Source of the DNA: Geosiphon pyriformis uo1
Lineage: Eukaryota; Fungi; Glomeromycota
Length of the DNA stretch: 64,000 nt
Direction of reading: 5' to 3'
NCBI GenBank assembly: GCA_016748015.1
Contig: JAAOMT010000430.1
Span: forward strand, 152,232-216,231
Under the pieces are notes generated by a model, which made no database searches, was not told where the DNA came from, and was given only the letters and a program-made list of their open reading frames with translations. The first letter of the stretch is position 1. Every line of letters begins with the position of its first letter. This document shows positions 1,446 to 64,000 of the stretch, piece after piece. The position numbers and the translations under genes are program-made.

Positions 1446-1475
1446 AAACATTTCAACCTAAAAATATAACAAAAG

Positions 1476-2857: not shown

Positions 2858-2909
2858 ACAACTAAGGAGTATATAAAGACATGGTATACACAATAAAAAA
2901 CAACAAAAA

Positions 2910-3547: not shown

Positions 3548-3561
3548 AAAGGAGAGAATAA

Positions 3562-7700: not shown

Positions 7701-7995
7701 AGCCAATTTACAATTAATGTCTGTATATCTGAGGCTTTTTCTATTGTGCCCGATTTCTACAACCAATGTTGGATTAAAAGATTGCAGATAATCAATCTTC
7801 TTAGAAATAAAGACATTTTTATTAAGTAAGTAAAGGTTAAAAAACATTTTGGTATATCTGGCAATGTTAAAACTGATACATTAGCTAATAAAGCCACATT
7901 CTTGCCTTTCTTTTTGCTGGTTAGAATTCAGAAGAGATATTTAATTGCTAAAAAAACTGCTATATCTGACAATACTTGTTATTTTGTTTGTAATA
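4711..7995 (+). mobile_element. Non-LTR retrotransposon (LINE) ORF2 fragment: end of endonuclease, RT, RNase H; decayed
   Basis: LPNNKAAELSGIPNELWK, LWLVLQDIHKAYN, YLGIFLS (RT); IEVYTD...TELQTVALAL...YLNSQ...HFGISGN (RNase H). Homologous to 24900-28150(-). Confidence 0.88.
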
Positions 7996-30345: not shown

Positions 30346-30358
30346 TTATTTCTCTCTT

Positions 30359-31094: not shown

Positions 31095-31155
31095 GTTAAA
31101 AGTTCTATTATTTCTTGCTGTTTTTCAAATGCTATATATATTTGAATTTCCTAAT

Positions 31156-32540: not shown

Positions 32541-32550
32541 GGGTCTGGGA

Positions 32551-35500: not shown

Positions 35501-35721
35501 TTTGGTAGCAGTTGGCCATTCTTCGTTGTCTTTAATACATGTGCCCATAGAAGATAATTTTTTTCTACAGTTAACACAAATTAATTTTGGGGTTTGATAT
35601 TATTGACTTCCTTGACTTGGGGCAGAATAATCTACAGGTGTTGATTGTAGTTTTTTTTCTGCTTTTCTCTTTTCCTTTTTTTTCCAAGTTGGTGTTGGGG
35701 GTAACTCTGTTTGGTAATCAT
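32551..35721 (-). pseudogene. pol: Element B pol 3' part: Cys-rich domain, dUTPase, RT, RNase H
   Basis: CLAC, LCDHCLISCNF, AGFDL, SQSSL, IINAGY, IAQAI, TTDASK, DLECLAI. Confidence 0.85.
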
Positions 35722-35725
35722 CCAC

Positions 35726-36554
35726 TGTTACAGTTTAAGAATTTAGCAAAAAGAATCATAAAAATAATACAAACTATTCAATCATAATATAGCACAGTAA
35801 TAATCTTAGAAAGGTAATGATTAACATAATAGCAAACACCATCTCGCGATAGTGGCAAGCACCAGTTCACAATAGCAGCCAACACCAACTGGTGATAGCA
35901 GCAAGCACCAGGTTGAAATATTAAAAAGAAAGTATTTTCTCGTAGAACTACAAACATGTATATATACAGTAGTTTTAATATTGAGAAAGAATCAATCAAG
36001 TAATAAAAATCATAACTTATCAAGCAATAGATCCAAATTAAATATCCCAAGAAACTTTTAAAAATCAAAAAGAAATGAAAAAGAATATTTAAAACGGAAC
36101 TATCACAACCCAAAGTATTAAGAAACTTACTTGTATTATTTATTGAATGAAACTATCATTCATCAACTGAATCCCTTGGAAGAATAATCCTTGATCAAGA
36201 TTATTCATGTTGTTACTAATTGATAAAAGCTTTATTGTGAGAATTAGAAAAGCGCTAAAGACCATTAACATTCTGTGTTTCTAGATTAGAGAAACACATC
36301 AGGCAATTGCAAGGATAGCCTCAGAGAAGACCCCAGACAGTGGGTAGATTTCAGTTCAGCCTCTGAGAAGGAGTACATAAACACACACAACAATCAAGAA
36401 TTAAAGAATAACTTACATCGCAACAGTAAAAAGAAAGCCTTCAGTGTAACAGTGACATTATCACACAAATAGAATTGAGGAACTCACGAAAGACTGATTG
36501 CAATTAAAGCAGGATATCAGCAATTAAATATAACAAGAGAACCATCCCGTAACA
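35726..36554 (+). repeat. 5' LTR of element C
   Basis: Direct repeat of 45055-45143 plus 45618-46408; contains TATATATA and AATAAA. Confidence 0.95.
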
Positions 36555-36556
36555 TT

Positions 36557-36573
36557 TGGTGAACCCTACGAGG
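36557..36573 (+). promoter_or_regulatory. Primer binding site TGGTGAACCCTACGAGG
   Basis: TGG starts after a 2-nt spacer from the LTR end and is complementary to a tRNA CCA end; tRNA identity unknown. Confidence 0.7.
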
Positions 36574-36635
36574 AAAGAAAATCAAAAAGGAAATAATAAT
36601 TAGCAATAATTCATTGCTAAAAAGGAAAGACAAAA

Positions 36636-42600: not shown

Positions 42601-42721
42601 GCTAAAAGGAAAATACGCCAGATGGTCACAAACATTAGCACCATACGATTATATTATCAAATACAAAGAAGGTACCAAAAATGCTAATGCCGACTGTTTG
42701 TTAAGAATGAGACACACATAA
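36636..42721 (+). pseudogene. gag-pol: Single-frame Gag-PR-Cys-rich-dUTPase-RT-RNase H polyprotein with a few premature stops
   Basis: ORF pieces starting at 36636, 38040, 38304, 39384 and 40077 share one frame. Motifs CHFCKRVGHLISQC, LILDSGSAGS, AGFDL/RSSLA/GVIDSGYTG, SPWSSPVVLV, CVDYRKLN, LDLTSGYWQV, LATDASG, HELECLAVV. Confidence 0.92.
40110..40515 (+). other. dut: dUTPase domain within Pol, between PR/Cys domain and RT
   Basis: All five trimeric-dUTPase motifs: AGFDL, RSSLA, GVIDSGYTG, IAQAI, KGTFGFGLTG (decayed RGxxGFGSTG). Confidence 0.93.
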
Positions 42722-42750
42722 AAATCACCAACCCACCCGCCACAACAACA

Positions 42751-43917
42751 ATGAACAACCATCTTTACAAAAACCTCAGCCAATACTTGGAAACACTACA
42801 AATAGACGAAAAAATGCCAGTAAAAGAGCTAATTAAGCTCCAAAAATTAGCAAAACACTATTTCATCCAAAATCACATACTTTATTACCGGAATTGACAA
42901 AATCCAGATAATCCATTAAGAGTTATAACCACGAATGAAAAAGAAACTATCTTATTTAACATGCACTCAGATATTCATTCAGACCACTTTGGAAAAACAG
43001 CAACCATCCAATGTGCAACTAGTCATTACTATTGGCCAAAAATAAGTTCAGACATAATTCAATACATAAAAAATTGTGACCCATGCCAATGAAAAAGAGG
43101 AGCAAAAACAACGGAATTATTAAGACCAATAAAAGTTGAACAGCCATTTGACAGAATCGGAATTGATTTAGTTGGACCCTTACTAATAACAACAAGAAAC
43201 AACCGTTATATTGCAGTAGCCATGGACTATCTCACCAAATGGCCAGAAGCTAGAGCTATTAAAACAGCTGATGCTATTTCCGTAGCTCAATTCGTACATG
43301 AAGACTTAATTTGCCAACATAGATGTCCACAAGAATTGCTATCAGATCAAGGCACACACTTTGTAAACAGCACCTTAAAAGAACTTAGCCAAAAATTTGG
43401 AATCAAGCGACTACTGTCATCACCATACTACCCTCAAACAAATGGATTAGTTGAAAGATTTAATTGCACATTATGCGAATCACTGGTGAAAATTAGTAAC
43501 AAACATGAAAAAGAATGGGATTTGTTCATACCAGCAGTACTACTAGCATATAGAACAGTAAAACAAGATACTACACAATTCACACCGTTCGAACTAGTTT
43601 ATGGAAGAAAAGCTACATTACCCGTTGAACTTACTATTCCAATTTATCCGAGTGACACTATCACGGAAGCAACATTCCAGGAAACACTACTTAGAAGAAC
43701 ATATGAATTAATGGGAACTTTAGAAAACAAAAGAAGAAAAGCAGCACAAAATATTGAACAATCACAAGAACAACAAAAAGTGAGACATGATAACCAGTTA
43801 CCAGATAATATAATTAGCTACAAAATTGGAGATAAAGTATTGTTGCATCATACAAAAATGGAAAAACAGTGGAGTGGAAAATTTGATCACAAGTGGGATG
43901 GACCATTTTATATTCAC
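42751..43917 (+). pseudogene. int: Separately encoded integrase of element C (3' end lost in gap)
   Basis: MNNHLYKNLSQYL...HSDIHSDH...CDPC, IGIDLVGP, SDQGTHF, TNGLVERFN, KWDGPFYI. Confidence 0.92.
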
Positions 43918-44632
43918 NNNNNNNNNNNNNNNNNNNNAAGGAAAATACGCCAGATGGTCACAAACATTAGCACCATACGATTATATTATCAAATACAAAG
44001 AAGGTACCAAAAATGCTAATGCCGACTGTTTGTTAAGAATGAGACACACATAAAAATCACCAACCCACCCGCCACAACAACAATGAACAACCACCTTTAC
44101 AAAAACCTCAGCCAATACTTGGAAACACTACAAATAGACGAAGAAATGCCAGTAAAAGAGCTAATTAAGCTCCAAAAATTAGCAAAACACTATTTCATCC
44201 AAAATCACATACTTTATTACCGGAATTGACAAAATCCAGATAATCCATTAAGAGTTATAACTACGGATGAAAAAGAAACTATCTTATTTAACATGCACTC
44301 AGATATTCATTCAGGCCACTTTGGAAAAACAGCAACCATCCAACGTGCAACTAGCCATTACTATTGGCCAAAAATGAGCTCAGACATAATCCAATACATA
44401 AGAAATTGTGACCCATGCCAACGAAGAGGAGGAGCAAAAACAACGGAATTATTAAGACCAATAAAAGTTGGACAGTCATTTGACAGAATCGGAATTGATT
44501 TAGTTGGACCCTTACCAATAACAACAAGAAACAACTGTTATATTGCAGTAGCCATGGACTATCTCACCAAATGGCCAGAAGCTAGAGCTATTAAAACAGC
44601 TGATGCTATTTCNNNNNNNNNNNNNNNNNNNN

Positions 44633-45597
44633 AATAAGTGAATTAACACCAGACACATTTAGCAACTTGAAAACGAAATTTCCAATTAATTACTGTTATT
44701 ATCAACTAGGAAAGCACTTGAACATACAAACATTATACTCAAAAGACTCAACTAGAGTGTTTGACAAAACAACTATCCAACTATTAGAACCTTTCATTGG
44801 AAAAACCAACACTACATTCCATTCAAAAACAGTTTACAGAATTTTCAAAGCATTTGAAAACTGTTACAAATTATTGTTGGACCCAACCATGAACATAATA
44901 ACAACCAACAGTATTGGACGACTTACCAACTCACAATTTCAAGAATTACAACAACAAATTAATAACACAGTATTGAACCACTATAGTAACTTAGAATTTA
45001 ATGAAGAAATTAACTTCGATTTTGACGGAGCTCAATCTTGAAAGGAGGGGATAATGTTATGGTTTAAGAATTTAGCAAAAAGAATCATAAAAATAATACA
45101 AACTATTCAATCATAATATAGCACAGTAATAATCTTAGAAAGGNNNNNNNNNNNNNNNNNNNNAAACACCCAGAATTGGAACACAATTACCTTTAATTCT
45201 ACCAGAACAAATTCCATGAGATTTAGAACCAATAGTTTTAATTGAACATTATTCGAAAAGATAATTAATCTTAGATCACAGCAAAAATGATTTAACAACC
45301 ATAAAAATGCATGCAAAAGATTCCAAAATAACAGTCAAAATTAAAACAATGATACTTATTCCAGAAAACATCAACAATATAACTCAACAATTAATTGAAA
45401 GCTTACAACAATTAAAATCCGATCTAGAAATCACAGTTAATAGCTCCAAAATAACATACATAAAAAGAACAATAGAAAATCCAAAAACAAGAAAAGAACA
45501 TAATTTCGAACCATATAATATTGCCAAATATAACACCAAATTTATTAGCAAAGTTATTGAAAAATTAGAGATAGCATTGGGCAATACATTAATAATG
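44633..45597 (+). pseudogene. ORF3 of element C in two mis-ordered pieces (N-terminal 45349-45597; C-terminal 44633-45041)
   Basis: MILIPENINNITQQLIESL... and ...ITTNSIGRLTNSQFQELQ...DFDGAQS* directly followed by PPT AAGGAGGGGATAA. Confidence 0.72.
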
Positions 45598-46408
45598 NNN
45601 NNNNNNNNNNNNNNNNNTAATCTTAGAAAGGTAATGATTAACATAGTAGCAAACACCATCTCGTGATAGTGGCAAGCACCAGTTCACAATAGCAGCCAAC
45701 ACCAACTGGTGATAGCAGCAAGCACCAGGTTGAAATATCAAAAAGAAAGTATTTTCTCATAGAACTACAAACATGTATATATACAGTAGTTTTAATATTG
45801 GGAAAGAATCAATCAAGTAATAAAAATCATAACTTATCAAGCAATAGATCCAATTTTATCCAACAAACTCCACTTTAAATCATACTTTCAAATTAAATAT
45901 CCCAAGAAACCTTTAAAATCAAAAAGAAATGAAAAAGAATATTTAAAACAAAACTATCACAACCCAAAGTATTAAGAAACTTACTTGTATTATTTATTGA
46001 ATGAAACTATAATTCATCAACTGAATCCCTTGGAAGAATAATCCTTGATCAAGATTATTCACGTTGTTACTAATTGATAAAAGCTTTATTGTGAGAATTA
46101 GAAAAGCACTAAAGACCATTAACATTCTGTGTTTCTAGATTAGAGAAACACATCAGGCAATTGCAAGAATAGCCTCAGAGAAGACCTCAGACAGTGGGTA
46201 GATTTCAGTTCAGCCTTTGAGAAGGAGTACATAAACACACACAACAATCAAGAATTAAAGAATAACTTACATCACAACAGTAAAAAGAAAGCCTTCAGTG
46301 TAACAGTGACATTATCACACAAATAGAATTGAGGAACTCACGAAAGACTGATTGCAATTAAAGCGGGATATCAGCAATTAAATATAACAAGAGAAACATC
46401 CCGTAACA
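45055..46408 (+). repeat. 3' LTR of element C (split by gaps and a misplaced contig)
   Basis: Begins TGTTATGG after the PPT, ends CCCGTAACA; carries about 38 nt (45855-45892) absent from the 5' LTR. Confidence 0.9.
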
Positions 46409-46412
46409 CCAC

Positions 46413-49036
46413 CCATAAAACTTGATAGGTTTCTATGGTTGGTGATGATGTTGTGTCTTTAAATTTAATTAGTGGTTCCTCTGAGCTTTGGACTTTAAAG
46501 TGTCCATATATAGCCAGAACTCAGACATATTATCCATTAAAGGTGATCTGTAATTCTTGTGTGTTCCAGTTAAAAATGGCATGAGCTTTGGCCAACCAGT
46601 TGTTTCTGATGAGAGCTTGATATTGCATGGCTTTCATGATTAGAATTTTTGTAAGAATTTGGGTTCTGTTGATTTCAAAAGAGAAGTTATCGATTTCTCT
46701 GATTGGGGTTTTGGTATTGCCATCTGTAGTAATAATTCAGGTGGTTGTGGCATAATCTACTTGGTAATCTAATTAATCCATGAATTGTTTTGTTATTATA
46801 CTGTCTGCTGATTTGCTATCAAGAATTAATTTAATGTCTATGTTTCTAACTTTAGTATTAGTATACAGGGCCATAATTGGTTTGTCCTAATTTATGATGG
46901 CTCTATTGAAAAGGCTATTTGTATTCAGATTGTCAATGTTAAAGAGAAAGATAGCAGCAAAGATGGTATCTTTAGTGATAGTAGTGAGTAAAATAGTATT
47001 GTTAGTTTGATTTCACCTTGAAAGATTGAAAGTTTCTTTTACAGCCTTTCTTTCTAAAGATATAGAGCTATAAAAATCCTGGTTTTTAATAAGACCAAGA
47101 TATAAGGCTTGGTTAGAGTATCTGGTTGGTGCTGGTTGAGATGAGACATTACTACAATTTAAAGATTGTGATAGTATACTGTTAGTTGGCATCTGATATT
47201 GCTGGAGTTCCTCCATCCTTGGTTGTAATTAATTGCCCAATGTCTAAGTTGGTTATTAACAGGGTTTTAGTACTGGAGTGTTGCTTGAGCCATTGGCTAC
47301 AATAATCGGTAATGGTTTTGAGGTGGTTGCTGGGTATACTGAATTTGTTGTGAGTATTGAAACAGTTAATATTAAAATGTAGAGTATTGGAATACCATGT
47401 TTTGAGAGTATCTCAGTTGCTAATATTGATTTTTTTGATTTTGGTCTATTACTTTCTTATGGCAGTTCCAGACAATATGTTCAGGTTTCTGACAATAGTA
47501 ACAATTGCAGAGATTGAATCTCTAAGGTTGTTGTTGTTGCTAATAATTTTGTTGTTGTTGGTATCTGTTGTTATTACTGTCTTTTTGTTGTGGTGGCTGG
47601 TAGGGTTCTATGGTACTGGCTAAAAATCTTTCAATTTTCTGAGTTAATTTCTTACTTAATTGAGTTATTTTTGTGTTGATATCAGATGTTCTATTAATAG
47701 CCAGATTAACAGCTTGAGTATAATTAGCCTCTTGTTCTGCTGACTCAAAGTCACAAGCAAGAATAACTGCCTCTTGTAGATTTGTTGGATGGTAGAGTTT
47801 TACAGATTGGAGGAGGCTGCTCTTTAATCTTTTGACAAATTGATTAAGGATTTGCACCACAAAGTAGTAATCCCTTTTAATGGTCTGAATTTGACAAAAA
47901 ATTTGGTTGAATTATCCAAGATAAATGGTCACTGCTTTGTGATTTTTTTGTTTTATGATACTGAACTGATTTTGTAATCTGATGAGAGTGTTGAAATCAC
48001 AAAAGTATTACAGAAAGGCAAGTTTAAAGGTGGCAAAGTCAGTTGATTTTTCTGCAAGGCTTTAATATCATGAGTCTATAATTCTAGTCAAAAAAAATAG
48101 CAATGCTTGAATGGCCCTATCATTATTCTAATTGTTGGTAATGATGGTTTTCTTGGCTTTTGCAATTCATATATATGCATTGTCTTCTTTACTAGAAAAT
48201 TTTTCTAATTTGGCAATATCTTGGTAAGCCATAATCTGAAGGATAGATAGAGTCTTACTGTTTGATGCTGAAAGGTTTGGTGTTTGCATGCTAGGGTGTT
48301 TTTCTGGTGCTAATTCTGGTTGTTTCCTTTTGTTAATTTTCCCAATAGGCTGGAGAATAACTGGTTTCTCAGAGAGAGTAGTTGATAATTTGGTCAAGAG
48401 TTGGGTTGGTGGTGGTTCCCTCATCAACATATTTCTATCTGTTTTGTTAATTGTTGGGATGAGATTTCCAAACAACAATCCATATTCTTCTAATGAGTTG
48501 GTCCAATTGTGTTGATTCTAGGAGTGTAGATTTTTAGGAGTTTGTGGTGTTTCTGACTGGGTTTTCAGAGATGGGTTGAATACCATTCTACTTTGAGGTG
48601 TCTGATGGTATAATAGAGTTGTTAGGGAGAGGAATTTTGGTTTCTTGTTAACCGTGGACTTGGCTTGGGCAGTTGCAGAGTTGTTAGATTCATCTTTATA
48701 TTCCTCAGGGTCAGATTTTACTGGTTGTTGTACTTGTAAGAATTGTTTTGCCACATAATAATTAATGTTTGTATCAATTATGTGCAAAGTTTCAGTAATT
48801 GTTTAGGTAGTTGTGGCTGTTGAGTACCCTAATAAGCTTTGATAGATTTGTTCTTCTAGTCTTTTTGTGTTGGTTGTATGGCCTATTAAGCAGTCAATTT
48901 TTGTGTTGATATAGTTACAAAAATCACTTTTTGCATAAGTGGTTTCTGCTGGTATTCCTAAGTCTTTTTGAAAGTATTGAAATAATGCTCTTCCATATGG
49001 GAAGTGGTCTTTTTCTACTGTTCCAATAGTTGCCAC
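46413..49036 (-). pseudogene. gag: Element B gag-protease remnant starting at GTG 49036
   Basis: (M)ATIGTVEKDHFPYGRALFQYFQKDLG, AKLEKFS, ILNQFVKRLKSSL, KLILDS; TYQVLW|VDDY rejoins across element C. Confidence 0.85.
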
Positions 49037-49097
49037 TTTTGTGAATTTCTGGGGTGTTTTGTCTCTATAGATTTATAACCTTATAGAAAGCACTAAA

Positions 49098-50141
49098 TGT
49101 TACAGATAAACTTGGTGGGATAAGAAGATGGTAATGTTTAGTGCTCTCAATTATTAGTAAGGTGTGTTTCATGTAATTCTGGTGACTTAATCTTGATTAT
49201 TAGTCTCTAAAGGTCTTTTTTTCTGGTTGTGAATTTACCTATTGAATTCTTTGGTTATAAGACACAGAGTTTTGGTTTTTATTAATTGCAACTTCTTATA
49301 AAGGTGAACTTTTTTCTCCAAGTTAACAAGCACAGTTATTATGGTCTGACATTGTCTTTTCACCCTTTTGGTAAGCTATCAAGATAATGTTAATATCCAA
49401 AAACCTAGGAAAAGCTTCTTTTTTTTACCAGGCTATCATAAAGTCTATTCCCAAACAGTTGATTTTACTATATTGCTGCTCTACAAGAGAAAAATAAAAG
49501 AAAGAAAAAGAAAATAAAAGAAAAGAAAGAAAATAAAAGAAAAAGATAAATTAGTATTGTCAATTACCATAATCAAGAGCAATTGATCTAAATCATTAAT
49601 AGTTTGAAGCAGTTATACTAAGAGCATTTGTTCTAGAATAAAGGTATGAAACAATGATTAATTCATGTAAATTTCACAAAGTTTGAGAACATAAATTTGT
49701 GATTTTGATTTCTTAATAATTGATTTATTTCAGAAAATGAATATGAAATATAATAAATAATGAAAGAGTATGAATATTTGATTCTTATTTAGTGGTTTAT
49801 ATTTATCTGTCCTGTCTTTTTCTATCTTCTACAACTACTTGCTTTTATACATTCTTTTGGTTTTACAGGATTGCTTTTGATTGTTTCATTATTGTTAACT
49901 ATTGCTTTGTTTTTTCTGTTATTGCTTTATTTTTCTATATTATTACTAGTTATCTTATATTATAATACGTTATCTAATGTTATTATATGTTATTCTGTAT
50001 TATCCTACATTATAACGTATTATTTTGTGCTATCCTAAGTTATAATGTGTTATCCAATATTATTTTGTGCTATTCTGTGTTATGTTACATTCTGGTCATG
50101 TTTTTTTATAATTTCAGATCGGTTTTTTTATTCAGATAACA
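49098..50141 (-). repeat. 5' LTR of element B
   Basis: Direct repeat of 29302-30345; followed on the minus strand by TTTAGTGCTTTCTATAAGG (decayed PBS). Confidence 0.92.
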
Positions 50142-51304: not shown

Positions 51305-51888
51305 TATTATAAGTAATTATTTGGGGTTTTAAAGCAAATAACAAATCCATAAATAACTAATATGGTTGGTATTATTTAAAGGTTTTGGTTATCTGAAGGT
51401 TTAAGTTGAGTTCTTTGTATAATAGACAGAAATCTTAATTGATAGTTTTATCCATAACTTTCTGAATCCACAGTTTTGTTGATTTTTTTCATAGTGTGAT
51501 GACCAGTAATCCTCTTGGTAAGATATCTTCAATTCTAAGTATCTATTCTTATTTCTAAGTCTTTTACCAGTGCTATATCCTGACATTAGTACCTTTGCAT
51601 GTAATTTTTTTAATCAAGTTAGCAAAAATAACAACAAAATAAAACAAGAAAAAAAAATAAAATAAAAAGTAAGCCAAGGCAATTTGCATGTTAGTATCCC
51701 ATCAATAACCATGATTAAGAGCTATTGTTCTTGTGTAGTTAAGTATCAATTATTATCAACATAAAGTGTTAATAGTGGGGAATGGATTAAGACATTGAAT
51801 AATTATTTATTGATATTTATGAATAGAAGAGTTGCTTAGATCAAATCTAAACTGAGAGGTCCCTCTTTTCTACTTTTAATACTACTGC

Positions 51889-52725
51889 TGTTACTTATAG
51901 AAAAAGAAAACAGATATAGAAAAATAGTAAACCAATAAGAGAGTAGTAGTTAGCACATGAGTGTATTGCTCAGCAATGTGGAGCAATATCAGAAATCATG
52001 GCATATTGCTTAGCAATATAGAGCAATGTGGAGCAATGTCAAGAAAATATGGCACATTGCTCAGCAATGTGAGCATTGCTTGAAGAAATTATAGCACATT
52101 GCTTGAAAATGTGAGCAATCTCATAGAACCCAAATTATGTATATATAGTGGTAGCATTAGAAGTAGAAAAAACAAACCTCTCAGTTTAGATTTGATCTAA
52201 GCAACCTTCCATTCACAAATATCAATAAATAATTATTCACTATCTCAATCCACTCTCTACTATCAACACTTTATGTTGATAGTAATTGATACTTAATCAC
52301 ACTAGAACAATAGCTCTTGATTATGGCTATTGACAAAATACTAACTTGCAATTGCTTTTGTTTATTTCCTTATCTTCTTTTATTTTCTTTTATTTCTTTT
52401 GTTATTTCTTTGGTTTTACTAAATTGATTAAAGATTAAGCACTGAGATACAGACTTCATAAGGACTGGTAAAAGACCCAGGAAACAAGGATAGAACACTT
52501 ATGGATTTGAGGATAGCTTACCAGAAGGATTACTGGCCACCACACTGAGAAAAAAATTCGATGAAATTGCAATTCCAGGAGACTATTGAAACAACTATTA
52601 AATTTCTGTTTATTATACAAAAAACTTCACAACAAAACCTTTAGATATTAACACCAGAATACCAACCAAGCACCAAGTTACAGATTTGTTATTTGACTTA
52701 AGACCCCAAATAATTATCTGTAATA
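51889..52725 (+). repeat. 5' LTR of element D
   Basis: TGTTAC start; CCAAT; CACATTGCTCAGCAATGTG array; TATATATA. Confidence 0.93.
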
Positions 52726-52727
52726 TT

Positions 52728-52744
52728 TGGTGCTCCCTGTAAGA
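52728..52744 (+). promoter_or_regulatory. Primer binding site TGGTGCTCCCTGT(A/G)AG, resembling the complement of an elongator tRNA-Met 3' end
   Basis: Starts after a 2-nt spacer from the LTR; same motif in elements F and B. tRNA assignment is by recalled resemblance only. Confidence 0.6.
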
Positions 52745-52787
52745 TATAATTTTACAGAGAACAGCACCAATCATAATCATTCAAACA

Positions 52788-55700
52788 GTGGCAGAATCTG
52801 AAGAAATAGGAACAAACCATTTAAGATTTGCAAAATCTTTATTCCAACATTATTATACTCATTTTGGATTAATAAATAATAGTTGGCTAACAGAATCAGC
52901 TTTCAATTGCTATGTCAATAAAAGAATAGTATATTACTTGGGAGGCCAAAGAGATCCAAAATCCGCCTTTAACAACTTTTTCAGTGAAATGCTCCAAAGC
53001 ACCACCCTCCCACAAAACTACCTATTTGCACCCCTAATTACAGAAATAAACAGAGAAATTGAAAAATACACCAAACAGAGATTTTCTATCATGTTTGCCG
53101 ACAAAGAAAAACAAAAGCTACAAACACCAGCAAGAACACCAAAGCAAATCCAACTACCCATTTGGAAGAAACAAAGATTTGATTTATCTGCTAACCCATT
53201 ATATCACTACACACCCGGAAGCACTATCAATATAATAAGCACAGTTACAACAAGTGCAACAACGCCATTAAACAGAATCCCATTTTAAAGTAAACAAAAG
53301 AAAGCAGAGTTATTAGGAATATATGACAATTATTTTGAGGAATTTAAATCACGATTCCCAATGCCATCAGGAATTCAATTACTACCACCACAACCAGATT
53401 TCAGAGCCATTAGTCCTTGAAAAATAACTGACTCTGAGGAAAAAGAGAGTAGTAATCAAGAAGTTAATAAGCAAAACCCAATTCTAGAAAATTCAGAAAT
53501 TAAAACTCTGGTTAATCAAACTCCAGAAAATCAGAATAATCAAAACCCTGACATAATTAATCAACACTTATCTTCAGTAATCATGATCAATCCACCACCA
53601 GCTCCACTAAATACCAAACAGCAACAACAGCCACAACTGCTACTTCAACAACAAATCTAGCAGCAACCACAACAACAACTAATGGCTTATATTCTAATTG
53701 CCAAAATCAAGAAATTTACTGGCAAAGAGGATAATGCCCAAGTATGACTCAATGATGTGGAAAAAGCCATTACAGCCAATGAATGGAACAATGACAGAGC
53801 CCTTCAAGCAATCTCTTATTTTCTACAAAATATTGTTAACTTGTGGTATCAGAGTTTAGTTGTTAAACCCCAAACATTCCAGGAATTCAAAACTGCATTC
53901 TTAAGATATTTCAGTAATAACAACACATTAATTGCTTAGCCAATACCTTCATCACAATTAAACAGGGAGAAACTGAAGCAGTTACTATTTACTTGGAATG
54001 TTTCCACAAGAACTTGCACCAAATTCAAGCAATCCAAGCTAACTATTTTACAGCACCACAGATTCTAAATTAGTTTATCTATGGACTGCGCAGTAGCCTA
54101 CTCCAATGAGTATGCCCAATGTACTCACAAACTCTTCAAGATGCAGTCACCAATATGAGAGATTTTGAATTGGTAGAACTTGAAGCAAATCATGCCCAAG
54201 CCGTTAATCTAGTAATGAATGGATCATCTGAACTGGATTCCAAATTAAAACAATTTGGTGATTCCATCAATCAGAAATTAGAGAGATATTTAGCTGACAA
54301 TTGTGCAATTTATTAATCTCTTCAATAACACAATAATCAAGGAAACGCAAATTGTTTTCAGAATTAATTGTGCCTGTCAACATCATTTAATCAGCCATAG
54401 CAGCAAGAAATGCGTATCTACCACTATTGTGGTAAACAAAGACATCTGAGAATCAATTGTCAGTTAAGAATAGAAAACCAATGATTGAAAAATCAATATC
54501 AAAACTCTGATCACAGGTTTCTAACTCCAAGTTATCAATTAAACTTAGCAGTATATCAACCAAATTACATATTTATGATGCAGCCGCAAATTTATCAACT
54601 TCCAATTTATCAATCAACAACACCTGTCATCTATTAACTACAACCACAACCAATTTATCAGCTGTAGTCACAACTTATTTATCAGCCACAGCCTTAGGTA
54701 ATTTATCAGCCCCAACAAAATCAAACACCACCACAAAACTTACCTCAAAGTAAAACTCAAAGACCAAGATTGACCCAACAGAGCTGGAGATTGTTGATGG
54801 TGGTCCATTAACTAATCTCCAGTTCCATGGCACAACCATCAGGATCTCAACAACAGAATTTGGGCACCGAATACACCCAAAACCCAAATTCCCAGAACTA
54901 TTTAAGTCTCCTGGTTACTCCAAAAGATGCCCAATCCAATAATCTGGAAACCAACCAAAACAAATTACTTATCAGTAATATACCTCCAGCTGCCAGTACT
55001 GAAGACAAAACACTAGCTGCCATATTTCTTTTTGATTTCAATAAAATTACACCAGTCCCATTATTTAGTAGAGCCACTCTGGACACCAAACCAATTATGG
55101 CCATGTATATCGATGCTAAAGTCAATGGCTACTCTATCAAGCTAATACTTAATAGTGAATCAGCAGACAGTATAATCACATGACAACTCATAGACCAATT
55201 AGGTTGCCAAGTTAATCACACTGTCAGTACCAAAATTATCATGGCTGATAGAGCTATAAAGACTCCCATTGGTGAAATAGATAACTTCTTATTTGAAGTT
55301 AATGGTCTCATCATATCAATAAAAGTACTAGTCATGGAAGCCACCCAATACCAAGCTTTAGTTGGTAATAACTGGCTGTCCAAAACAAATATGCTGCTTG
55401 ACTGGACCACCCAAGAGTTGCAAATCAGCCAAAACGGCCAACACATGCAAGTACCAGTCACATGTGGTTACTTCAAACCCATCACCACACCATCAGCACC
55501 ACTTATCAAATTTGAAAAAAAAAAGAGAAACCTACCTGGGAGGTATACCAAGTCTCTTGGGCCAATGCAGATCACAACGAGCTATTACTGATACTCTCTT
55601 GAAATAACAAAGGAAAAAGGAAAAAAAACAAAGAACTTATCTAGAATACCAACCAAGTCTGGAAAACTGATAATGACCAGAACAAATCAGCAAAATGGAA

Positions 55701-58700
55701 GTGAGAAAAAATTGATAAGAGAAAGAGAAAAGAGAAAGAAGAAGAATCCATTCTCACCAGCAGCACTTATAGTTCATATGCTTACATTTTATCACAACTA
55801 TCCAATTACTGTCGACCAAAATTAGAATGTGTCAATTGTGGCAAGAGATTGTTGTCAATAGGTGCTTGCTGTGACAACGATAAAGAATATGCCATGGCAA
55901 CAAAATTCTATTGCCATCCATATATTATAGAACACTTTGGATGACCAAAATAACAAGGGAAGTGGGACAACCAACTGTGTTTCACATGTAGAACTATTTT
56001 ACCTGACGAAGAAATGTGGAAAGATATTCCTAGGTGTGGAAAAACATGTGACATGATATGTCAGTATATGATCTTAATCAATGACTGGATAAGCAAAGGA
56101 ACACCAATTGATGATGTCTGGAAACAAGCATTGCAATGATTGGAAGAATATCTCTACGACAAAGATAAACTATGGAAAATGATGAGTGTAAAAGCAGAAG
56201 GTGTGACAACTAATAAACTCTGGAAATTAAAAATAACCCTTTATCTTTTCCTGAACCCAAATACATTCAAACTTTTGACATTTTTGGCAACATGGAGGAT
56301 GATCCAGAAGAATTTTATGAACATTACCAGCAATTAGCACTCATGAGAGAAGAACAAAAGCAGCATTTAGAGCAGTTGAATACTTGATTATGTCAACATT
56401 GCTTAATTTTCTGTGACTTTTAATATTGTAATAAGTGTGACCTTATTTACAATCCACCACCACACATGATCTACATGATCCCAGAAGAAGACAAACCAAT
56501 CAGCAGCTGCATAGTGGAATCAAAATCAACTTTTAACTCCAATTCAAACTCCAACAATGATGACAACAAAAACAATAGTTCTAGCTCTACTCAATACAGC
56601 AACAAAGATAACAATAATTTGGACTCCAGTTTAAACTCTGAAACATATATTGCTCTCCCTGACCTTACCAAGGAGCAGGAACTGAAATGGTTTAGCAATA
56701 ATAATAAAAGCATCATAACTGAATGCGCGCATGATACTAATGCAGGGTTTGATCTGAGATATCCCAGAAAAGATTCCATCAAATTGGAACCCCACTCGCA
56801 CATATGCATTGATCTCAAAATAGCATTAGAAATTCCAGCAACAACAATGGTTCAACTAGTGTTTAGGAGTAGTTTAGTGAAAAAAGGAATCAACATCAGA
56901 AAAGAAATAATTAACACAGGATACATAGAAAATATCATTGCTATGCTACAAAACGACTCAGAAAAAGCATATAACATAGATCCAAATGAAAAGATAGCAC
57001 AGACAATATTTTTGCTTTTAGTGAAAATAGTGCAGTTAGTATTAGTGGGAAACAGGGAAAAATTAGGGATTACTGGTAGAGAGATACAGAAATTTAAATT
57101 TATGGGGAGAATAAACATACCAGTTAATATGGTAGAGAAAAAAATTATTGACAAAGAAGAAATTATTTCAACCCATCAAACAATCTCTATTCCACCATAT
57201 GACCAGTATATGTTAGCTATAAAAAGAAAAGTAAAGAATTAGGCTCAGTTGTTTGAAGCAGAAGCCACTATTTGCAAATCCAGAGAGATTGGACTCACTA
57301 ATCTTTATATATCAGCCAAAAGCCCCAAAAACATTAAAATTCCCATCTATAACATAACAGAAAGTGTTATTAAAATACCAAAAAGAACTATTATTGGATA
57401 TTTAACTACTAAAGTTGAAAATCAACCACCAAATTATATTCCAAATTTTCCACAGCTTTGTGGATATGTGAACATTACATTACAAACCATCTATGGACAA
57501 AGTGAATGTTATCAGCTCCAATCAGAACAATTGGAACAAATAAACATGAAGAATCTAGACCCATTTCAACAGATGCAACTAAGAATGTTACTCAACAATT
57601 TCAATAACATCTTTGCTAATGAAAATGAATTTGGCCACACCAACATTATTCAGCATCAGATTAAAACTGGAGATGCAATGCCAATTAAGCAAAGAGCATA
57701 CAGAGTACTACCAGTTAGCCATGAGATCATTCATCAAAAAATCAATCGAATGCTTGACAACAGGCTAATTCAGCTATCAATAAGTCCATAATTGTTATCA
57801 GTGATACTAGTCTGGAAGAAAAATGGGAAAATCTGCTTTTGTGTAAATTACTGAAAACTGAATGGAATAACCAAAGAAGATAGCTATTCAACTCCAAAAA
57901 TCCAAGAACTATTTGATGCTTTTGGAGGAAACAAATGGTTTTCAATATTAGATCTAAATAGTGGTTACTGACAAGTAGCCATGGATCCAGCTAACAAAAA
58001 AAAGACTGTATTTACAACAAGAGAAGAGAATTTTGAATTTGAAGTCATGCCATTTGGCTTGATGAATGCTCCAGCAACATTCCAACAGCTTATAAAAATC
58101 ATCTATATGAGATTACTATGGAAATTAGTAGTCATATACTTAGACAATACAAATGTATTTTCCAAGACATTTAATGACCATCTACATTATCTTTAACAAG
58201 TATTTGAAAGATTGAGAAGAGCAGGATTGAAGTTGAATGCAAACAAATGCTTCTTTGAGAAAACTAAACTCAAATTCTTGGGACATGTGGTAAGCAAAGA
58301 CGGAATCAAAATGGATCCAAACAAAATTGAAATTGTCAAGAACTTTCCAGCACCAAATAATCTCACAGAATTAAGAGCATTCTTGGAATTTGCTGGATAC
58401 TACTGCCACTTTATCAAAGACTTTTCCAAAATAGCTCAACCACTACATCAGCTTCAAACAAAAAACACCAAATATGAATAAACAGAAACACAGCAAGAAG
58501 CTTTTGATACACTAAGAAAAAAGCTTATTCAAGCTATGGTACTGATCTATCCGGATTACAGCAAGCCATTCATTATTACCACTGATGTATCAGACCAAGC
58601 ATTGGAAGCAGTACTATTACAAAAAAAACCAGATGGAAGAGAGCATTCAGTAGCTTATGCCAATAGAAGCTTAAGTCCAGCTGAAAAGAACTATAGAACT

Positions 58701-58939
58701 CTAACACTAAAACACTTAGCTATCTATTGGGCTGTCATCAAATGGAAAAATACTTGAGTCAAAAGTTTGATGTGTACACTGATCACAAAGGATTGACTTC
58801 AATCCAGAAACAAAAATTCGGAGACAATCACCATGTCAGATGAAAAATAGAACTTTCACTATTCAATTATACAGTACATTATAAAAAGAGAAAAGACAAT
58901 GAAAATGCTAATAGATTGTTGCAAATGAGACAAATCTAA
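52788..58939 (+). pseudogene. gag-pol: Element D Gag-PR-Cys-dUTPase-RT-RNase H polyprotein remnant (GTG start)
   Basis: KLILNSESADSII, NAGFDLRYP, RSSLV, EKIAQ, FEVMPFGLMNAPATFQ, VIYLDN, ITTDVS; stop codon 58937-58939. Confidence 0.9.
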
Positions 58940-58968
58940 AACATTTCAACTCAAAAATATAACAAAAA

Positions 58969-60349
58969 ATGAATATACAAAAATACCAACAACTACAACA
59001 TTATATAAATACTTAATTGTTCAAGAAAAAATTATCTCAAAAGAAACAAAAAGACATAAAACAACAATTTAAATATTTTATCAACCATCAAAATATACTT
59101 TACTGAAAGAACAAAAAAAATCCAGATCAACCAACCAGAGTAATTACAGAATCAGAAAAGGAGACAATATTATTCAATATGCACTCAGATCTAACAACAG
59201 GATATTTTCATAAAGAAGCAACCATTAAAAAAACCAGAAAAAGATACTATTGGCCATCAATGTATCCAGACATTATCCAATACATTCAAAATTGTGATGC
59301 TTGTCAAAGAAGAGGTGGAACAAAACCCAATGAACCATTAAAACCAATCAAAGTGGAACAACTATTTGATCAAATTAGAATTGATCTAGTCGGACCATTA
59401 ACAATAACCAACAGAGACAACAGATACATTGCAGTAGTCATAGACTATCTGACAAAATGACCAGAAGCAAAAGCAATTCAAAGAGCAGATACAGAATTTA
59501 TTGCCAAATTTGTTCATTAAAATTTGATTTATTAACATGGATGTCCAAAATAACTATTATCAGATCAAGGAACTTACTTTATGAATAGAACATTGACAGA
59601 ATTAAGTCAAAGATTTGGAATCAAAAGACCATTGTCATCACCATATCATCCACAAATTAATGGATTAGTAGAAAGATTCAATAGAACACTGTATGAAGCA
59701 ATTGTTAAGATTAGTCAAGAAAACCAGGATGAATAGAATTTGTTTATACCATCAGTATTATTTGCTTATTGGACAATGAAGCAAGACATTACACAAGCAA
59801 CACTATTTGAATTAGTATACAATAGAACAGCAACATTACCAGTTGAGATAGAAGTCAATATTTATCCAGTAGAACCAATAACTGAAGATAATTCAAGAAA
59901 CGTTGCTAAGAAAAACATATGACTTGATGGAAACTTTAAAAAACAAGTGACAAAGAGCAGCTGATAATATTCAAAAGTCACAAGAAAAACAAAAAAAAAG
60001 ACATGATAACCAACTACTAGATAAACCAGTTGAATTTAAGATTGGAGACAAAATACTTTTACATCGCACCAAAGCGGAAAAACAATAGAGTGAAAAATTC
60101 AACCCCAAATGAAACAGACCATTTCACATAGAAGAAATTCTTAGAAATGAAGCTTATAAATTAAGATGGAACAATAAAATCTTAGCCAAAGCAGCATATG
60201 GTGATCAACTGAAACAATATCACCAGATAACATTATCATTCACCAATAACATTTGACAACTGGAAGTACAAAGAATACTAGTTCAACCAAATGAGATTCC
60301 ATAAGATCTGGAACCAATTATAATTATTGGACCAAACACATCAAATTAA
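58969..60349 (+). pseudogene. int: Separately encoded integrase of element D
   Basis: MNIQKYQQLQHYINT... 29 nt after the RNase H stop; MHSD...YYWP...CDACQRR, IDLVGP, SDQG, NGLVERFN. Confidence 0.88.
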
Positions 60350-60408
60350 ATAACTAAAAGAGTATATAAAAACACAGTACATACAACAAAAGCAACCAAG
60401 AAAAAAAA

Positions 60409-61045
60409 ATGGAAATACCAGATTATATTCACATTATAGCTCAACAACTGTTCCAGAGCTTAAGTCAACAATAGTTAAACATGGAAATTGTTATTAACAA
60501 ACAAATAATTTGCTATCGAAACACCCAAAGAAAGACAAAGAATATATCATACCAGCAACCACCAAAGAACAATAAAAACTAGACAGATAACTTAATAGAA
60601 AAAGTAAAGAACACTTTTGAGAAAATACCTGTTATGACACCAACAGAAGAGCTTATAAAAGAAAATTGAAAGCAATGAACAGAATGACTTCCAATATCAT
60701 ATTGCTACTATTAATTAGATCAAAAGTTGAATATTCAGGAATTGTATATCGACAAATCCAAGAAAATATTCAACCAAGACATAATACAACAAATTGAAGA
60801 ATTTATCAGAAAGAAAACAAATTCAACACTACATGTTAAAACAATTGTACTAACTACACAACATATTTCGGAACTATCCAGAAATACTGTTACACTCTAA
60901 CATGAAAACCATAACCATTAACCAATAGAAAAGAATGAACAATATACAAGTAGAAAACATGAGAAACAGAGTCGAACAAACAATACTTGAAAAAGAAGTA
61001 TTAGAATTAATTCAAAACAAAAATTTCAATGGAGCTCAATATTAA
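60409..61045 (+). pseudogene. ORF3 of element D (~212 codons)
   Basis: TATATAAA 60363-60370; MEIPDYIHIIAQQLFQSL...NFNGAQY* followed by the PPT. Confidence 0.75.
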
Positions 61046-61059
61046 AAAGAAGGAGATAA

Positions 61060-61925
61060 TGTTACTCATAGAAAAAGAAAACAAATATAGAAAAATAGTA
61101 AACCAATAAGAGAGTAGTAGTTAGCACATGAGCACATTGCTCAGCAATGTGGAGCAATGTCAAAAATTATGGCATATTGCTTAACAATATGGAGCAATGT
61201 CAGAAATCACAGCACATCATTTAGTAATATGGAGCAATGTCAAAAAAATATGGCATATTGCTCAGCAATGTAAGCATTGTTTGAAGAATTATAGCACATC
61301 ACTTGAAAATGTGAGCGATCTTATAGAACCCAAATTATGTATATATAGTGGTAGCATTAGAAGTAAAAAAGACAGACCTCTTAGTTTAGATTTGATCTAA
61401 GCAACCTTCTATTCACAAATATCAATAAATAATTATTCACTATCTTAATCCACTTTCTACTATCAATACTTCATGTTGATAGTAATTGATACTTAACTAC
61501 ACTGGAACAATAGCTCTTAATCATGGCTATTGATGGAATACTAACTTGTAATTGCTTTCATTTATTTCCTTATTTTCTTTTATTTTCTTTTATTTCTTTT
61601 GTTATTTCTTTGGTTTTACTAAATTGATTAAAGATTAAGCACTAAGATACAGACATCATAGAGACTGGTAAAAGACCTAAAAAACAAGAATAGAACACTC
61701 ATAGATTTGAGAATAGCTTACCAGGAGGATAACTGGCCATCATGCTGAGAAAAAAATTCGATGAAATTGTGATTCTGAAAGGCTACTGAAACAACTATTA
61801 AATCTCTGTCCATTATACAAAAAACTCCACAACAAAACCTTCAAATATCAACACCAGAATACCAACCAAGCACCAAGTTATGGATTTGTTATTTGACTTG
61901 AGACCCCAAATAATTATCTATAACA
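61060..61925 (+). repeat. 3' LTR of element D
   Basis: Direct repeat of 51889-52725; ends TAACA. Confidence 0.93.
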
Positions 61926-63589
61926 CTGCTATATATACATAATTGAAATTTCTCAATTCCTTGATTTTTTACACCAGAAATCTTGAAATTTCTGGAATTC
62001 TGCAATTCTTCTTGAGAGAAATTCTGGAATTCTGTAATTTTTTATATGAGAATTCTGAAATTTCTGGAATCTTGCAATTTCTCTAAGAAAAATTCTGGAA
62101 TTTTATATTTACTATGGCTACTTCTGATTGGCTAATTTATATGCTAATATACTTCTTATATTCTATGAGTAATATTATTCTCTTCTTTTTAATATTGAGC
62201 TCTATTGAGATCTCCTAATTCTAATTCTCTGTCTTTGAGTATTTTTTGAACTTTTTTTTTGAGAATTACTTGAGTTATCTTGTTTTGTAATTCTTCAAAT
62301 TGAGCATTGGTTATTTTTCTTATTTAGTTAACAATAATAGTGTCTATTGCTGAATTAAGTAAGATTTTTGGCCTTTTTTTGAAATTTGACTTGTAATTGA
62401 TAGATAACTTATGCTTGTGTAGTTATATTGTTCTTTTTTACAAATTGTTTAAGTTGTTGTAATATTTTTGTGTTGAATAATCACTTTGTTTTATCTGATA
62501 TAAGTTTTGAATATTCAAGTATTGTCCCAAGTGAAAGTAACAAAAGTTTCTTGGAAATTGCTGTGTCCACCAATTCCATGTTTCTATCATCAACTCTAGA
62601 TATTGGGTGACTTTTGGCTGTACCTCTATTACCAATTTTACCTTGGTGATTATTTTTCCAATAGTGTTTTCTGTTTTTCTCTGTATTTTATCTTGTGGTT
62701 TTTTTTTGGTGTTTTTGTATCTAATGGTCTATTGATTAATTGTAATTTCCATTTCTTGTTGTTGGAGTTTGAATCAGGATTGAACTGTAATTCCGATTCC
62801 AATACACAGCTGCTGATTGGTTTGTCTTCCTCTGGAATCATGTAGATCATGCATGATAGTAGATTGTAAATAAAGTCACACTCATTACAATATTGAAAGT
62901 CATAAAAAATCAAACAATGGTTACATAGTCATGTATTTATTTCTTCCAACTGTTGTTCTTGTTTTTCTCAAGTGGGTGCTAGTTCTTGGTAGTGTTCATG
63001 AAATTGTTTTGGGTCTATAGGTTCTAAAACAATATTTGAATTTAGGCTTCAGTTAAGTTCTATGGATTCTGGTAGATTGTTTTTGATCATTCTTATTTCT
63101 TCTGGTGATGCTTCTTTAATTTTGGTGAGTGTTATTTGCCAGATTTCATTATTATCATGTAGACAACTGTCCAGACATTTTACTGCTTTTCTTTAAACAG
63201 CTTCTATGGAAGTTTTTTTTTTTATCCAATTACTAATTAGAATCATGTATTGGCACAATTCATCACAAGTTCTTCCTCATTCAGAAATGTTGTTCCACAT
63301 TCATTCATCCAACAGAGTTTTTCTACAAATGAGACAAAATTTATTGTCCTATTACCTTGTTATTTTGGTTATCCAAAGTGTTTTAGTATGCATAGACAGC
63401 AGTAGAATTTGGTTGCTATAGAGTATTCCTTATTGTCATTACAGCACACATTTATTGATATATACTAGTTTTAGTTGGTAATAATTAGTTGGTTGGAGTA
63501 GGGTATAGGTGTATAGACTATAAGTGGCAGTGGTAATTGGTATTGGCTCCTCTTTTTTCTTTTTTTTTCTTTTGTTATTTTTTCTCCAT

Positions 63590-64000
63590 TGTTACAGATG
63601 ATTATTTGGGGTCTTAAATCAAATAACAAACCCATAACTTGGTGCTCAATTAATAATGTGGTTGGTAATATCTAAAGGTGTTGTTTATCTGAAGGTTTTG
63701 TTGTGGAGTCCTTTGTATAATGGATAGAAATTCAATTGTTGTCTTTCTAGTAGCCTCCCAGAATTGCAATTCCATCAAATTTTTTTCTTAGTATGGTGGC
63801 CAATAATTTGGTAGAGATGCTCTTCTGATAAGCCAAGGCAATGAATATTAGTATCCTGTTAATAGCTGTAATCAAGAGCTATTGTTCTAGTATGGTCAAG
63901 TATCAATTACTATCAACATGAAGTGTTGATAGTGAAGAGTGAATTAAAATAGTGAATAATTATTTATTGATATTTGTGAATGGAAAGTTGCTTATATCAA
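63590..64000 (-). repeat. Family-A LTR 3' end inserted into element E (runs off the window)
   Basis: TGTTACAGATGATTATTTGGGG is the reverse complement of the LTR end at 4352-4373. Confidence 0.85.

Follow-up and report, generated by a model that had tools for sequence, protein, structure and literature searches.

How does a long terminal repeat (LTR) retrotransposon supply itself with integrase when the integrase gene stands apart from pol? The usual arrangement in LTR retrotransposons and retroviruses is that integrase enters the particle as part of Gag-Pol, from which the protease frees it. The question is raised by a 64,000-nucleotide (nt) stretch of the genome of the glomeromycotan fungus Geosiphon pyriformis uo1 (contig JAAOMT010000430.1, positions 152,232 to 216,231 of the forward strand; hereafter the window, in whose coordinates positions are given). 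It holds three Ty3/Gypsy-like elements with both LTRs (B, C and D), the 3' half of a fourth (A) and three fragments (E, F and G), all listed in Table 1. According to the accessible text of PMC3248453, integrase is usually the last part of pol in LTR elements. In the elements described here, a free-standing integrase gene is almost certainly a real Ty3/Gypsy architecture that extends to an entire clade, and the split integrase is the trait that is constant in this clade.

In each of the four window copies (A, B, C and D), a stop ends the RNase H frame a few codons past a conserved NAD-like end motif, and a new ATG opens the integrase frame 30, 10, 29 and 29 nt further on, respectively. Relatives were fetched from metagenomes by integrase alignment; among the best 80 of 461 confirmed loci, eight hold both RNase H and an integrase of the close clade. 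Their spacers measure 62 (L002), 89 (L003), 30 (L004), 63 (L005), 110 (L008), 74 (L009), 521 (L011) and -4 nt (L020), the last being an ATGA overlap of stop and start. The split junction is thus found in 4/4 window copies and 8/8 related loci, and the separately started integrase proposed in an initial annotation of this DNA holds at all 12 junctions. The step from the RNase H to the integrase frame is 0 in three junctions, 1 in one and 2 in eight. In the intact relatives L002 and L020, a single frame runs unbroken from Gag up to the RNase H stop over 1479 and 1577 codons, respectively; both were checked for a continuous Pol-integrase frame and are split. At six of the eight related loci, the stretch from the RNase H stop to the ATG is closed in the integrase frame, so that neither readthrough nor one frameshift could produce a fusion there. 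A slippery heptamer, searched for at the 12 junctions, is absent from each. Outside the clade, a frame change between RNase H and integrase occurs in, for example, L022, L024, L028, L032, L045, L049 and L053, several of which have other breaks. Two relatives carry additional sequence in this region. The long spacer of L011 (L011:868-1392) contains a small ORF, and no ORF3 lies downstream of its integrase; in L002, about 310 extra codons past RNase H (L002:3497-4438), acidic and with a Cys/His-rich end lacking a Pfam match, precede the stop and the integrase gene.

Protein databases tell a similar story. Among the near-length integrase relatives listed (the best 120 of 821 matches), which include proteins of Rhizophagus irregularis, 102 begin with a methionine at one shared alignment column, and the RNase H end motif occurs in none of the 120. 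A search for the fused Pol-integrase form (120 listed of 138 matches) returned four proteins of this lineage. Three of these apparent fusions were rejected as gene models apparently spliced across the stop, with the RNase H end or the integrase start missing.

The split-type elements also group together. A reverse transcriptase (RT)-RNase H tree was built by a quick search without bootstrap from 65 of 116 collected rows, after removal of 51 that were redundant or partial and without C because of its gaps. In this tree the elements are nested among Gypsy RTs, and the 13 split-type rows, which include two gene models, are set apart from the rest by a branch with a Shimodaira-Hasegawa-like approximate likelihood ratio (SH-aLRT) support of 96, so that the distinct Gypsy lineage of the initial annotation is upheld. 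In an integrase tree (86 of 314 rows, outgroups drawn from search matches), a 28-row clade is recovered at support 99. The sub-groups L002+L011, L004+L008, L003+L009+P0122 and the window copies agree in both trees. This agreement disfavors capture of a Ginger-type transposase and would better fit a split that arose inside an inherited pol. In the integrase tree, whose deep nodes are poorly supported, the integrase is not sister to the only two OTU-bearing Ginger stand-ins included. Some observations count against the overall picture. The L020 integrase is placed outside the 28-row clade at a weakly resolved position. The fourth putative fusion, the Rhizophagus gene model P0124, connects the RNase H end with integrase through a linker and is perhaps a true fusion. 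In B, C, L005 and L020, the open integrase frame extends upstream beyond the RNase H stop, and recoding would be possible there. A neighbor of the clade is also of note: L027, a Gypsy element with a fused integrase (2276-codon ORF) followed by two deoxynucleoside-kinase ORFs (L027:9155-10971), falls in the part of the RT tree that is sister to the split-type elements.

Which class do these elements then belong to? Ty3 is the best solved match for both RT-RNase H (E 5e-97, query L002) and integrase (E 2e-30, query P0001). LTRs, a primer-binding site (PBS), a polypurine tract (PPT), a Ty3-type Gag, an aspartic protease (PR), RVT_1 and RT_RNaseH domains and the order PR-RT-RNase H-integrase are all present. 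Judged by RT and domain order, the elements are a Gypsy variant and not canonical-Pol, as integrase is not the C-terminal part of Pol at any of the 12 junctions. They do not resemble chromoviruses, as the D integrase ends in merely a weak SH3_Tf2-1 match and there is no chromodomain among the 120 relatives listed, nor errantiviruses, as the third ORF does not encode a membrane fusion glycoprotein. Integrase lies 3' of RNase H in A-D, which differs from the Gmr1-like arrangement, and the integrase-first loci L037, L050, L052 and L061 fall in another clade. The direct LTRs and RT set them apart from Ginger1/GIN, which have terminal inverted repeats and no RT.

The 5' part of these elements has its own unusual features. 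The initial annotation had Gag opened by GTG. In B, C, D and G this GTG has A at -3, is followed by GC and lies 60-85 nt beyond the LTR, with an in-frame stop no more than 12-16 codons upstream and no ATG between the LTR and the GTG. Among 888 contigs aligned to the 5' end of D, 16 variants reach at least 12%, and none of them falls at 52783-52798, including the GTG itself at 52788-52790. The extensions of B, C and D are 23-31% identical, in alignments that begin 3-13 codons from the GTG. What the initial annotation overlooked is an in-frame ATG at or just before the capsid domain, 166-297 codons past the first start in all five elements examined (C, D, L002, L003 and L020), and the ATG-free stretch before it. 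Three metagenome contigs continue beyond an LTR and so show the start of a following gag, which is CTG in a strong context in L020 and ATG in a weak one (T at -3) in L002 and L003.

In L002, L003 and L020, all three frames are free of ATG from the first start to the second. For out-of-frame ATGs, codon shuffling predicts 6.6, 8.7 and 5.8, respectively, against none observed (P 0.001 or less), or 0 against 21 when the three intact relatives are pooled. Decayed copies are also depleted (C 4 vs 9.1, P 0.02; D 2 vs 7.0, P 0.01), and pol and integrase controls are depleted in 0/7. This ATG-free stretch argues for leaky scanning that would yield long and short forms of Gag(-Pol), and we regard nested Gag starts of this kind as probable. 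The GTG is, then, probably a correct start for Geosiphon, but the minor one of two. Less easily accommodated are the 4 in-frame and 2 out-of-frame ATGs retained in the D extension, the 3-4 ATGs that C and D have in the LTR portion of their leaders, a few of them perhaps created by deamination, and TTTTACAG just 3' of the PBS in D and G, a possible splice acceptor. A hydrophobic segment is absent from the extension, whose maximum 19-residue hydropathy is 0.55-1.31 (6/6). In L004, gag and pol are in different frames, unlike in C, L002 and L020; the same locus has a very long Gag N-terminus of repeated Cys-rich motifs (L004:1-1700).

The third ORF that had been noted after integrase is present in the window elements. 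A TATA-like box lies 40-49 nt 5' of the ORF3 ATG in A, B and D, as had been stated for all, but C has CATAAAA instead. TATA also precedes ORF3 in L002, L003, L005 and L006, and the L020 ORF3 overlaps the end of integrase and has no TATA. A profile search for ORF3 found 254 clusters, mostly of about 140 residues. A profile built without Geosiphon members gave strong scores for L002, L003, L005 and L006 and weak ones for the window copies (E 0.02 for C, 1.2 for A and 2.8 for D, over 7920 segments). Two points weaken these inferences: TATA-like words are frequent in DNA so AT-rich, and hhalign links the Geosiphon ORF3 to the wider family only weakly (E 8e-4, probability 24%). As shared position adds to the weak profile match, the window ORF3s and the wider family are likely homologues.

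No Pfam family is common to more than 2 of 113 ORF3 members. The best match among solved sequences, uS13 (E 0.16), is not significant; Foldseek against PDB and BFVD gave no match at E 0.001 or better, and the best VIA-align Z was 5.0, so that no fold is assigned. A match in the ESM Atlas to a closterovirus coat protein (0.94, 150/256 features) lay below the trust mark and was dropped. An L003-type member is modeled as a compact all-helical protein of eight helices at a predicted local distance difference test (pLDDT) score of 95.7. The 19-residue hydropathy exceeds 1.6 in 0/115 family members, with a maximum of 1.18 in the Geosiphon ORF3s. As a hydrophobic segment is absent in 115/115, ORF3 is not an envelope, and the "virus-like" plan of the initial annotation fails if taken to mean an envelope-bearing one; the model makes ORF3 a soluble helical protein of no known family. 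In L010 and L011 a PPT and LTR directly follow integrase, and ORF3 is therefore accessory. Other domains vary as well: dUTPase is present in the window elements and L020 and absent in L002 and L004, the Cys-rich domain is found in the window elements only, and most relatives have neither. ESM Atlas matches for the Cys-rich domain (0.90 or less) were likewise below the trust mark and dropped. At the C-terminus of ORF3, the sequence F-x-G-A-Q directly precedes the PPT (61030-61059 and equivalents) in window copies, L003, L005 and P0121, which may reflect a DNA or RNA constraint near the PPT.

Taken together, these features suggest, with reasonable though limited confidence, a decayed Glomeromycota Ty3/Gypsy clade with a split integrase and likely four proteins: long and short Gag-Pol, integrase and ORF3. 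Transcription from the 5' LTR would produce genomic RNA. Scanning ribosomes would probably bypass the GUG in most cases (its context is strong, with A at -3 and G at +4) and cross the AUG-cleared 170-300 codons to the capsid AUG, so that leaky use of the GUG would give a minor long Gag-Pol and the capsid AUG the main one. Since Gag and PR-RT-RNase H share a frame in C, L002 and L020, capsid and RT would be co-produced. Detachment of integrase could lower its output, and the stop and start would substitute for a protease cut between RNase H and integrase. It is an even call whether some small ribosomal subunits remain bound to the RNA beyond the RNase H stop and reach the integrase AUG by scanning the short spacer, which is mostly free of AUG; such a mechanism has been proposed for LINE-1 ORF2. 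Integrase would then enter the particle untethered to Gag, through RNA or Gag binding. The TATA box 40-50 nt before ORF3 is likely to drive a short RNA ending in the 3' LTR, and ORF3 may tentatively be seen as an accessory soluble protein, most likely a regulator of element expression or particle assembly.

The observations behind this scheme are reading frames, stops, starts, spacers, ATG depletion and trees, from which every expression step is deduced, and this tells against it. For integrase, reinitiation after the RNase H stop is the simplest reading and perhaps an even bet. It is favored because neither a splice acceptor nor a TATA would find space in the spacers of C and D; across the 12 junctions, the spacer is ATG-free in 10 and YAG-free in 9. 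To our knowledge, reinitiation after a very long ORF is rare in eukaryotes. Other facts are unfavorable to it. The spacer exceeds 18 nt at 10/12 junctions. TGGGA, the core of the termination upstream ribosomal binding site (TURBS), is absent from the last 100 nt at 12/12, and the TURBS-type arrangement of UGGGA by a close stop-start pair is thus not seen, the gap being <18 nt in just 2/12. Simple reinitiation also fails to explain the L011 spacer with its 8 ATGs. This spacer, along with the other long ones (62-521 nt), some of them AT-rich with TATA-like words, sits more comfortably with the main rival, in which integrase is made from its own subgenomic RNA, either transcribed from a promoter within the RNase H region or spliced to the LTR leader, and an internal promoter is apparently already in use for ORF3. 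In C and D, however, the 29-nt spacers lack YAG and TATA, and an ATG about 45 nt 5' of the integrase ATG would confine the RNA start or join to some 45 nt; the overlap in L020 is typical of coupling. We therefore consider a subgenomic RNA unlikely, if still a serious contender. Internal ribosome entry on a structured RNA is more doubtful again. It draws on a hairpin 5-25 nt before the integrase ATG in a sub-clade of six sequences (L001:8-72, L002:4448-4506, L007:160-221, L012:1-51, L014:478-547 and L017:8-76), built of a purine-rich GAAAG..AAG linker, a 5-bp covarying stem, C-NNN-G and a bulged TGA. All 36 cells are paired, a value reached in 0/500 shuffles, with two-sided changes in 5/6 pairs; an Rfam scan of 8 loci gave 0 matches. 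The hairpin is a candidate new cis-acting RNA for integrase translation or packaging. It is absent from the window elements and L003, L004, L005, L008, L009, L011 and L020, and could equally serve reinitiation or packaging.

Could the stop be bypassed, or the split be apparent only? In one version, the RNase H stop would be overcome by frameshifting or readthrough and the GTG would be no start, the extension being entered through a spliced upstream exon. The -1 position of the integrase frame at 8/12 junctions, the frames open through the stop, P0124 and the possible acceptor in D and G point this way. The closed frames at six of eight intact loci, the occurrence of all three offsets, the missing slippery site and the recurrent integrase methionine point the other way; C and L020 have no acceptor, and splicing would leave the ATG-free extension unexplained, so that this version is very improbable. 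Least credible of all is that the stops and the GTG are artifacts of C-to-T decay in dead copies of a Gypsy element of the ordinary kind. In its favor, CpG is strongly depleted in the window, D contains 48 stops and CAA can become TAA, but the same split is found in the relatives with unbroken Gag-Pol frames and a CpG observed/expected ratio >0.9, and deamination makes ATG from GTG and not the reverse, the GTG being family-wide. A fuller scheme in the style of pararetroviruses, evolved in a widespread LTR-element clade of mycorrhizal fungi, which would combine leaky-scanned Gags, a free integrase reinitiated after a 1500-codon ORF, a separately transcribed new-fold ORF3 acting as reinitiation transactivator or integrase-loading adaptor, and a new structured RNA assuming this role in one sub-clade, is attractive but improbable as a whole. 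Reinitiation after the RNase H stop remains, for these reasons, the reading we prefer for integrase.

Table 1. Features of the Ty3/Gypsy-like elements in the window (window coordinates; TSD, target-site duplication)
Feature	Position	Strand	Remarks
D, 5' TSD	51885..51888	+	CTGC; flank comparison
D, 5' LTR	51889..52725	+	begins TGTTA; TATA near LTR position 251
D, PBS	52728..52745	+	begins TGG; contains in-frame stop upstream of GTG
D, N-terminal Gag extension	52788..53681	+	opened by GTG; 298 codons; ATG-depleted
D, Gag core	53682..54470	+	from in-frame capsid ATG; Ty3-type capsid and zinc knuckle; decayed
D, aspartic protease	55090..55470	+	
D, Cys-rich domain	55813..56470	+	several CxxC motifs common to B, C and D; no Pfam match
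D, dUTPase	56715..57050	+	
D, spacer end, RT and RNase H	57480..58939	+	terminates at TAA 58937-58939
D, intercistronic spacer	58940..58968	+	29 nt; no ATG; no YAG
D, stand-alone integrase ORF	58969..60349	+	H2C2, rve, SH3-like end; chromodomain absent; decayed; ATG 58969, stop 60347-60349
D, TATA-like box	60363..60371	+	46 nt 5' of ORF3 ATG; predicted internal promoter
D, ORF3	60409..61045	+	about 210 codons; one frameshift; ATG 60409
D, PPT	61046..61059	+	
D, 3' LTR	61060..61925	+	
D, 3' TSD	61926..61929	+	CTGC
Element C	35726..46408	+	youngest copy, inside B; TSD CCAC; six N gaps break 3' part
Element C, sites		+	GTG 36636; capsid ATG 37515; RNase H stop 42719; integrase ATG 42751
Element B	29302..50141	-	split by C insertion; TSD unmatched
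Element B, sites		-	GTG 49036; RNase H stop 32553; integrase ATG 32540; ORF3 ATG 31094
Element A	1..4373	+	3' half of D-family copy, with 3' LTR
Element A, sites		+	RNase H stop 1443; integrase ATG 1476; ORF3 ATG 2910
Fragment G	7981..10426	-	5' LTR, PBS, GTG and gag of D-like family
Fragment E	10500..12175	+	ORF3 and 3' LTR
Fragment F	61930..63807	-	deleted copy; Cys-rich piece fused to ORF3, plus LTR piece

With their coordinates mapped, B, C and D indeed share the layout LTR-PBS-Gag-PR-Cys-rich-dUTPase-RT-RNase H, then integrase, then ORF3-PPT-LTR described in the initial annotation, and the order of domains in B is the same as in D and C. Several of its finer points hold in part. Direct LTRs with TG...CA ends and a short TSD are present in D (CTGC) and C (CCAC), but the 4-bp TSD claimed for B is not confirmed, as its flanks (ACAA and GTGA) do not match; both could stem from GCGA via deamination. 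The LTRs, said to be dissimilar, are so for C, which has no similarity to either of the others, but B and D are locally 72-79% alike over 107-171 nt. D was put forward as the gap-free exemplar and has no N, yet it is heavily decayed, with 48 stops across seven frame segments (both natural stops counted). The full combination of features is found in the window elements but not lineage-wide, since Gag start, dUTPase, Cys-rich domain and ORF3 vary in relatives.

The LTR pairs are 91% identical in D, where transitions account for 72/75 differences, 97.7% in C and 86% in B. C is the best-preserved copy. Up to an assembly gap, a single 1610-codon frame with 6 stops contains Retrotrans_gag, Ty3 capsid, zinc knuckle, aspartic protease, Cys-rich domain, dUTPase and RT (PF03732 E 3e-12, PF19259 E 3e-11, PF13650 E 3e-11), and its 3' end is scrambled by scaffolding gaps. 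Seven such gaps of 20 N, with duplicated or misordered flanks, lie in the window (8255, 41467, 42094, 43918, 44613, 45144 and 45598), six of them inside C. Within the C LTR (36290-36480), the gene models P0241, P0156 and P0247 splice ORF3 or integrase onto a short LTR open frame, which may be either a true exon or an artifact of gene calling. A tRNA gene search of the window found none.

The DNA of the window is AT-rich and, apart from a few stretches, nearly free of CpG. In protein database searches, its ORF3 piece is 92-100% and its integrase piece 95% identical to Geosiphon pyriformis proteins, which points to this species or a very close relative as host. In the best DNA run, 86,674 contigs align along the whole of D, mostly 90-95% or <90% alike, which shows that the D family is very large and diverged, the contig number not being a copy number. 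Three other sequencing runs, with 25, 6 and 0 contigs aligned to D, are not informative on expression. The copies would have been amplified massively and would have decayed afterwards by C-to-T deamination; the accessible text of PMC11952901 gives LTR elements as 41.2% of the G. pyriformis genome. A search of IMG/VR returned just 3 distant phage-type integrase loci. Elsewhere in the window lie decayed non-LTR, LINE-like elements at 4720-7800 (+), 23900-29299 (-), 16000-22900 (-) and 50145-51305 (-), with weak RVT_1 matches and an RNA-recognition motif (RRM) in a 5' ORF piece; the copy at 16-23 kb is worn down to 11-17% GC. A 555-codon open frame at 13792-15459, which has kept its CpG and whose end resembles a fungal protein kinase, is probably a host gene isolated within the AT-rich block.

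A clade with a separate integrase gene must translate and package integrase by another route, and its natural variants, with overlap, short or long spacers, with or without ORF3 and with or without the RNA motif, are suited to comparing mechanisms. Pieces of the clade sit in protein databases as stand-alone "integrase core" proteins and hypothetical genes of mycorrhizal fungi, so that recognizing the architecture would improve the annotation of these fungi. In titles and abstract openings of the literature, no LTR retrotransposon with a separately encoded integrase was found, a scope that excludes Repbase, GyDB, the repeat library and supplements of PMC11952901 and subscription journals, which may hold the layout; at the same level, no account of Glomeromycota Gypsy structure was found. 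In the text available, bioRxiv 2021.03.30.436303 and PMC11952901 treat these elements as a class only, and the word "integrase" is absent from the main text of the latter.

Parallels to single features are known from several systems. Rice tungro bacilliform virus and other badnaviruses have an AUG-cleared stretch that enables leaky scanning, as does the Gag extension in its sequence. The glyco-Gag of murine leukemia virus is a CUG-initiated, N-terminally extended Gag, and it shares with the window elements a near-cognate start that precedes the Gag AUG in the same frame, but the extension found here is much longer and has no hydrophobic segment. Foamy viruses make Pol from its own subgenomic RNA. 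Ginger1/GIN DNA transposons have a stand-alone Gypsy-like integrase gene and a 4-bp TSD; the Gypsy-type integrase as an ORF of its own is shared, here inside an LTR element and after RT-RNase H.

Of the combination that the initial annotation did not recognize as described, two parts are already on record: a dUTPase placed between PR and RT, and a third ORF that is not env. The accessible texts of PMC6431247 and PMC5408684 report dUTPase in this place from rotifer Juno, Vesta and TelKA and planarian Burro, and cite the fungal Tuber Tmt1. The window elements resemble these dUTPase-bearing Gypsy elements in the place of dUTPase, and the rotifer elements also have varied non-env ORF3s. According to the same texts, their pol includes integrase and their ORF3 is typically spliced, in contrast to the split integrase and TATA-preceded ORF3 of the window; in Pfam, the window ORF3 has no match to any of those ORF3 types. 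Cauliflower mosaic virus (CaMV) has a polycistronic RNA with ORFs at variable distances, on which its transactivator (TAV) drives reinitiation, and expresses its last ORF separately (PMC5972666, in its accessible part). The polycistronic plan is similar, but the window elements possess LTRs and integrase, L010 and L011 lack ORF3, and in Pfam and BFVD nothing viral, TAV included, matches ORF3 in sequence or fold. A second long ORF on one RNA is translated through UAAUG coupling in SART1 and after a 63-nt spacer in LINE-1 (same source), and through UAAUG coupling in the fungal hypovirus CHV1 (PMC2699510, accessible text). All three share with the elements described here a long second ORF that follows a long first one by overlap or short spacer; the non-LTR elements separate ORF1 from the enzyme ORF, whereas here the split lies within the pol of an LTR element and reinitiation is read from sequence. 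Compared with Ty3, the canonical member of the Metaviridae, the window elements are alike in LTRs, PBS, PPT, short TSD, Ty3-type capsid and the order PR-RT-RNase H-integrase, and differ in that Ty3 keeps integrase within Pol, whereas they have a separate ATG-started integrase, nested Gag starts and a non-env third ORF.

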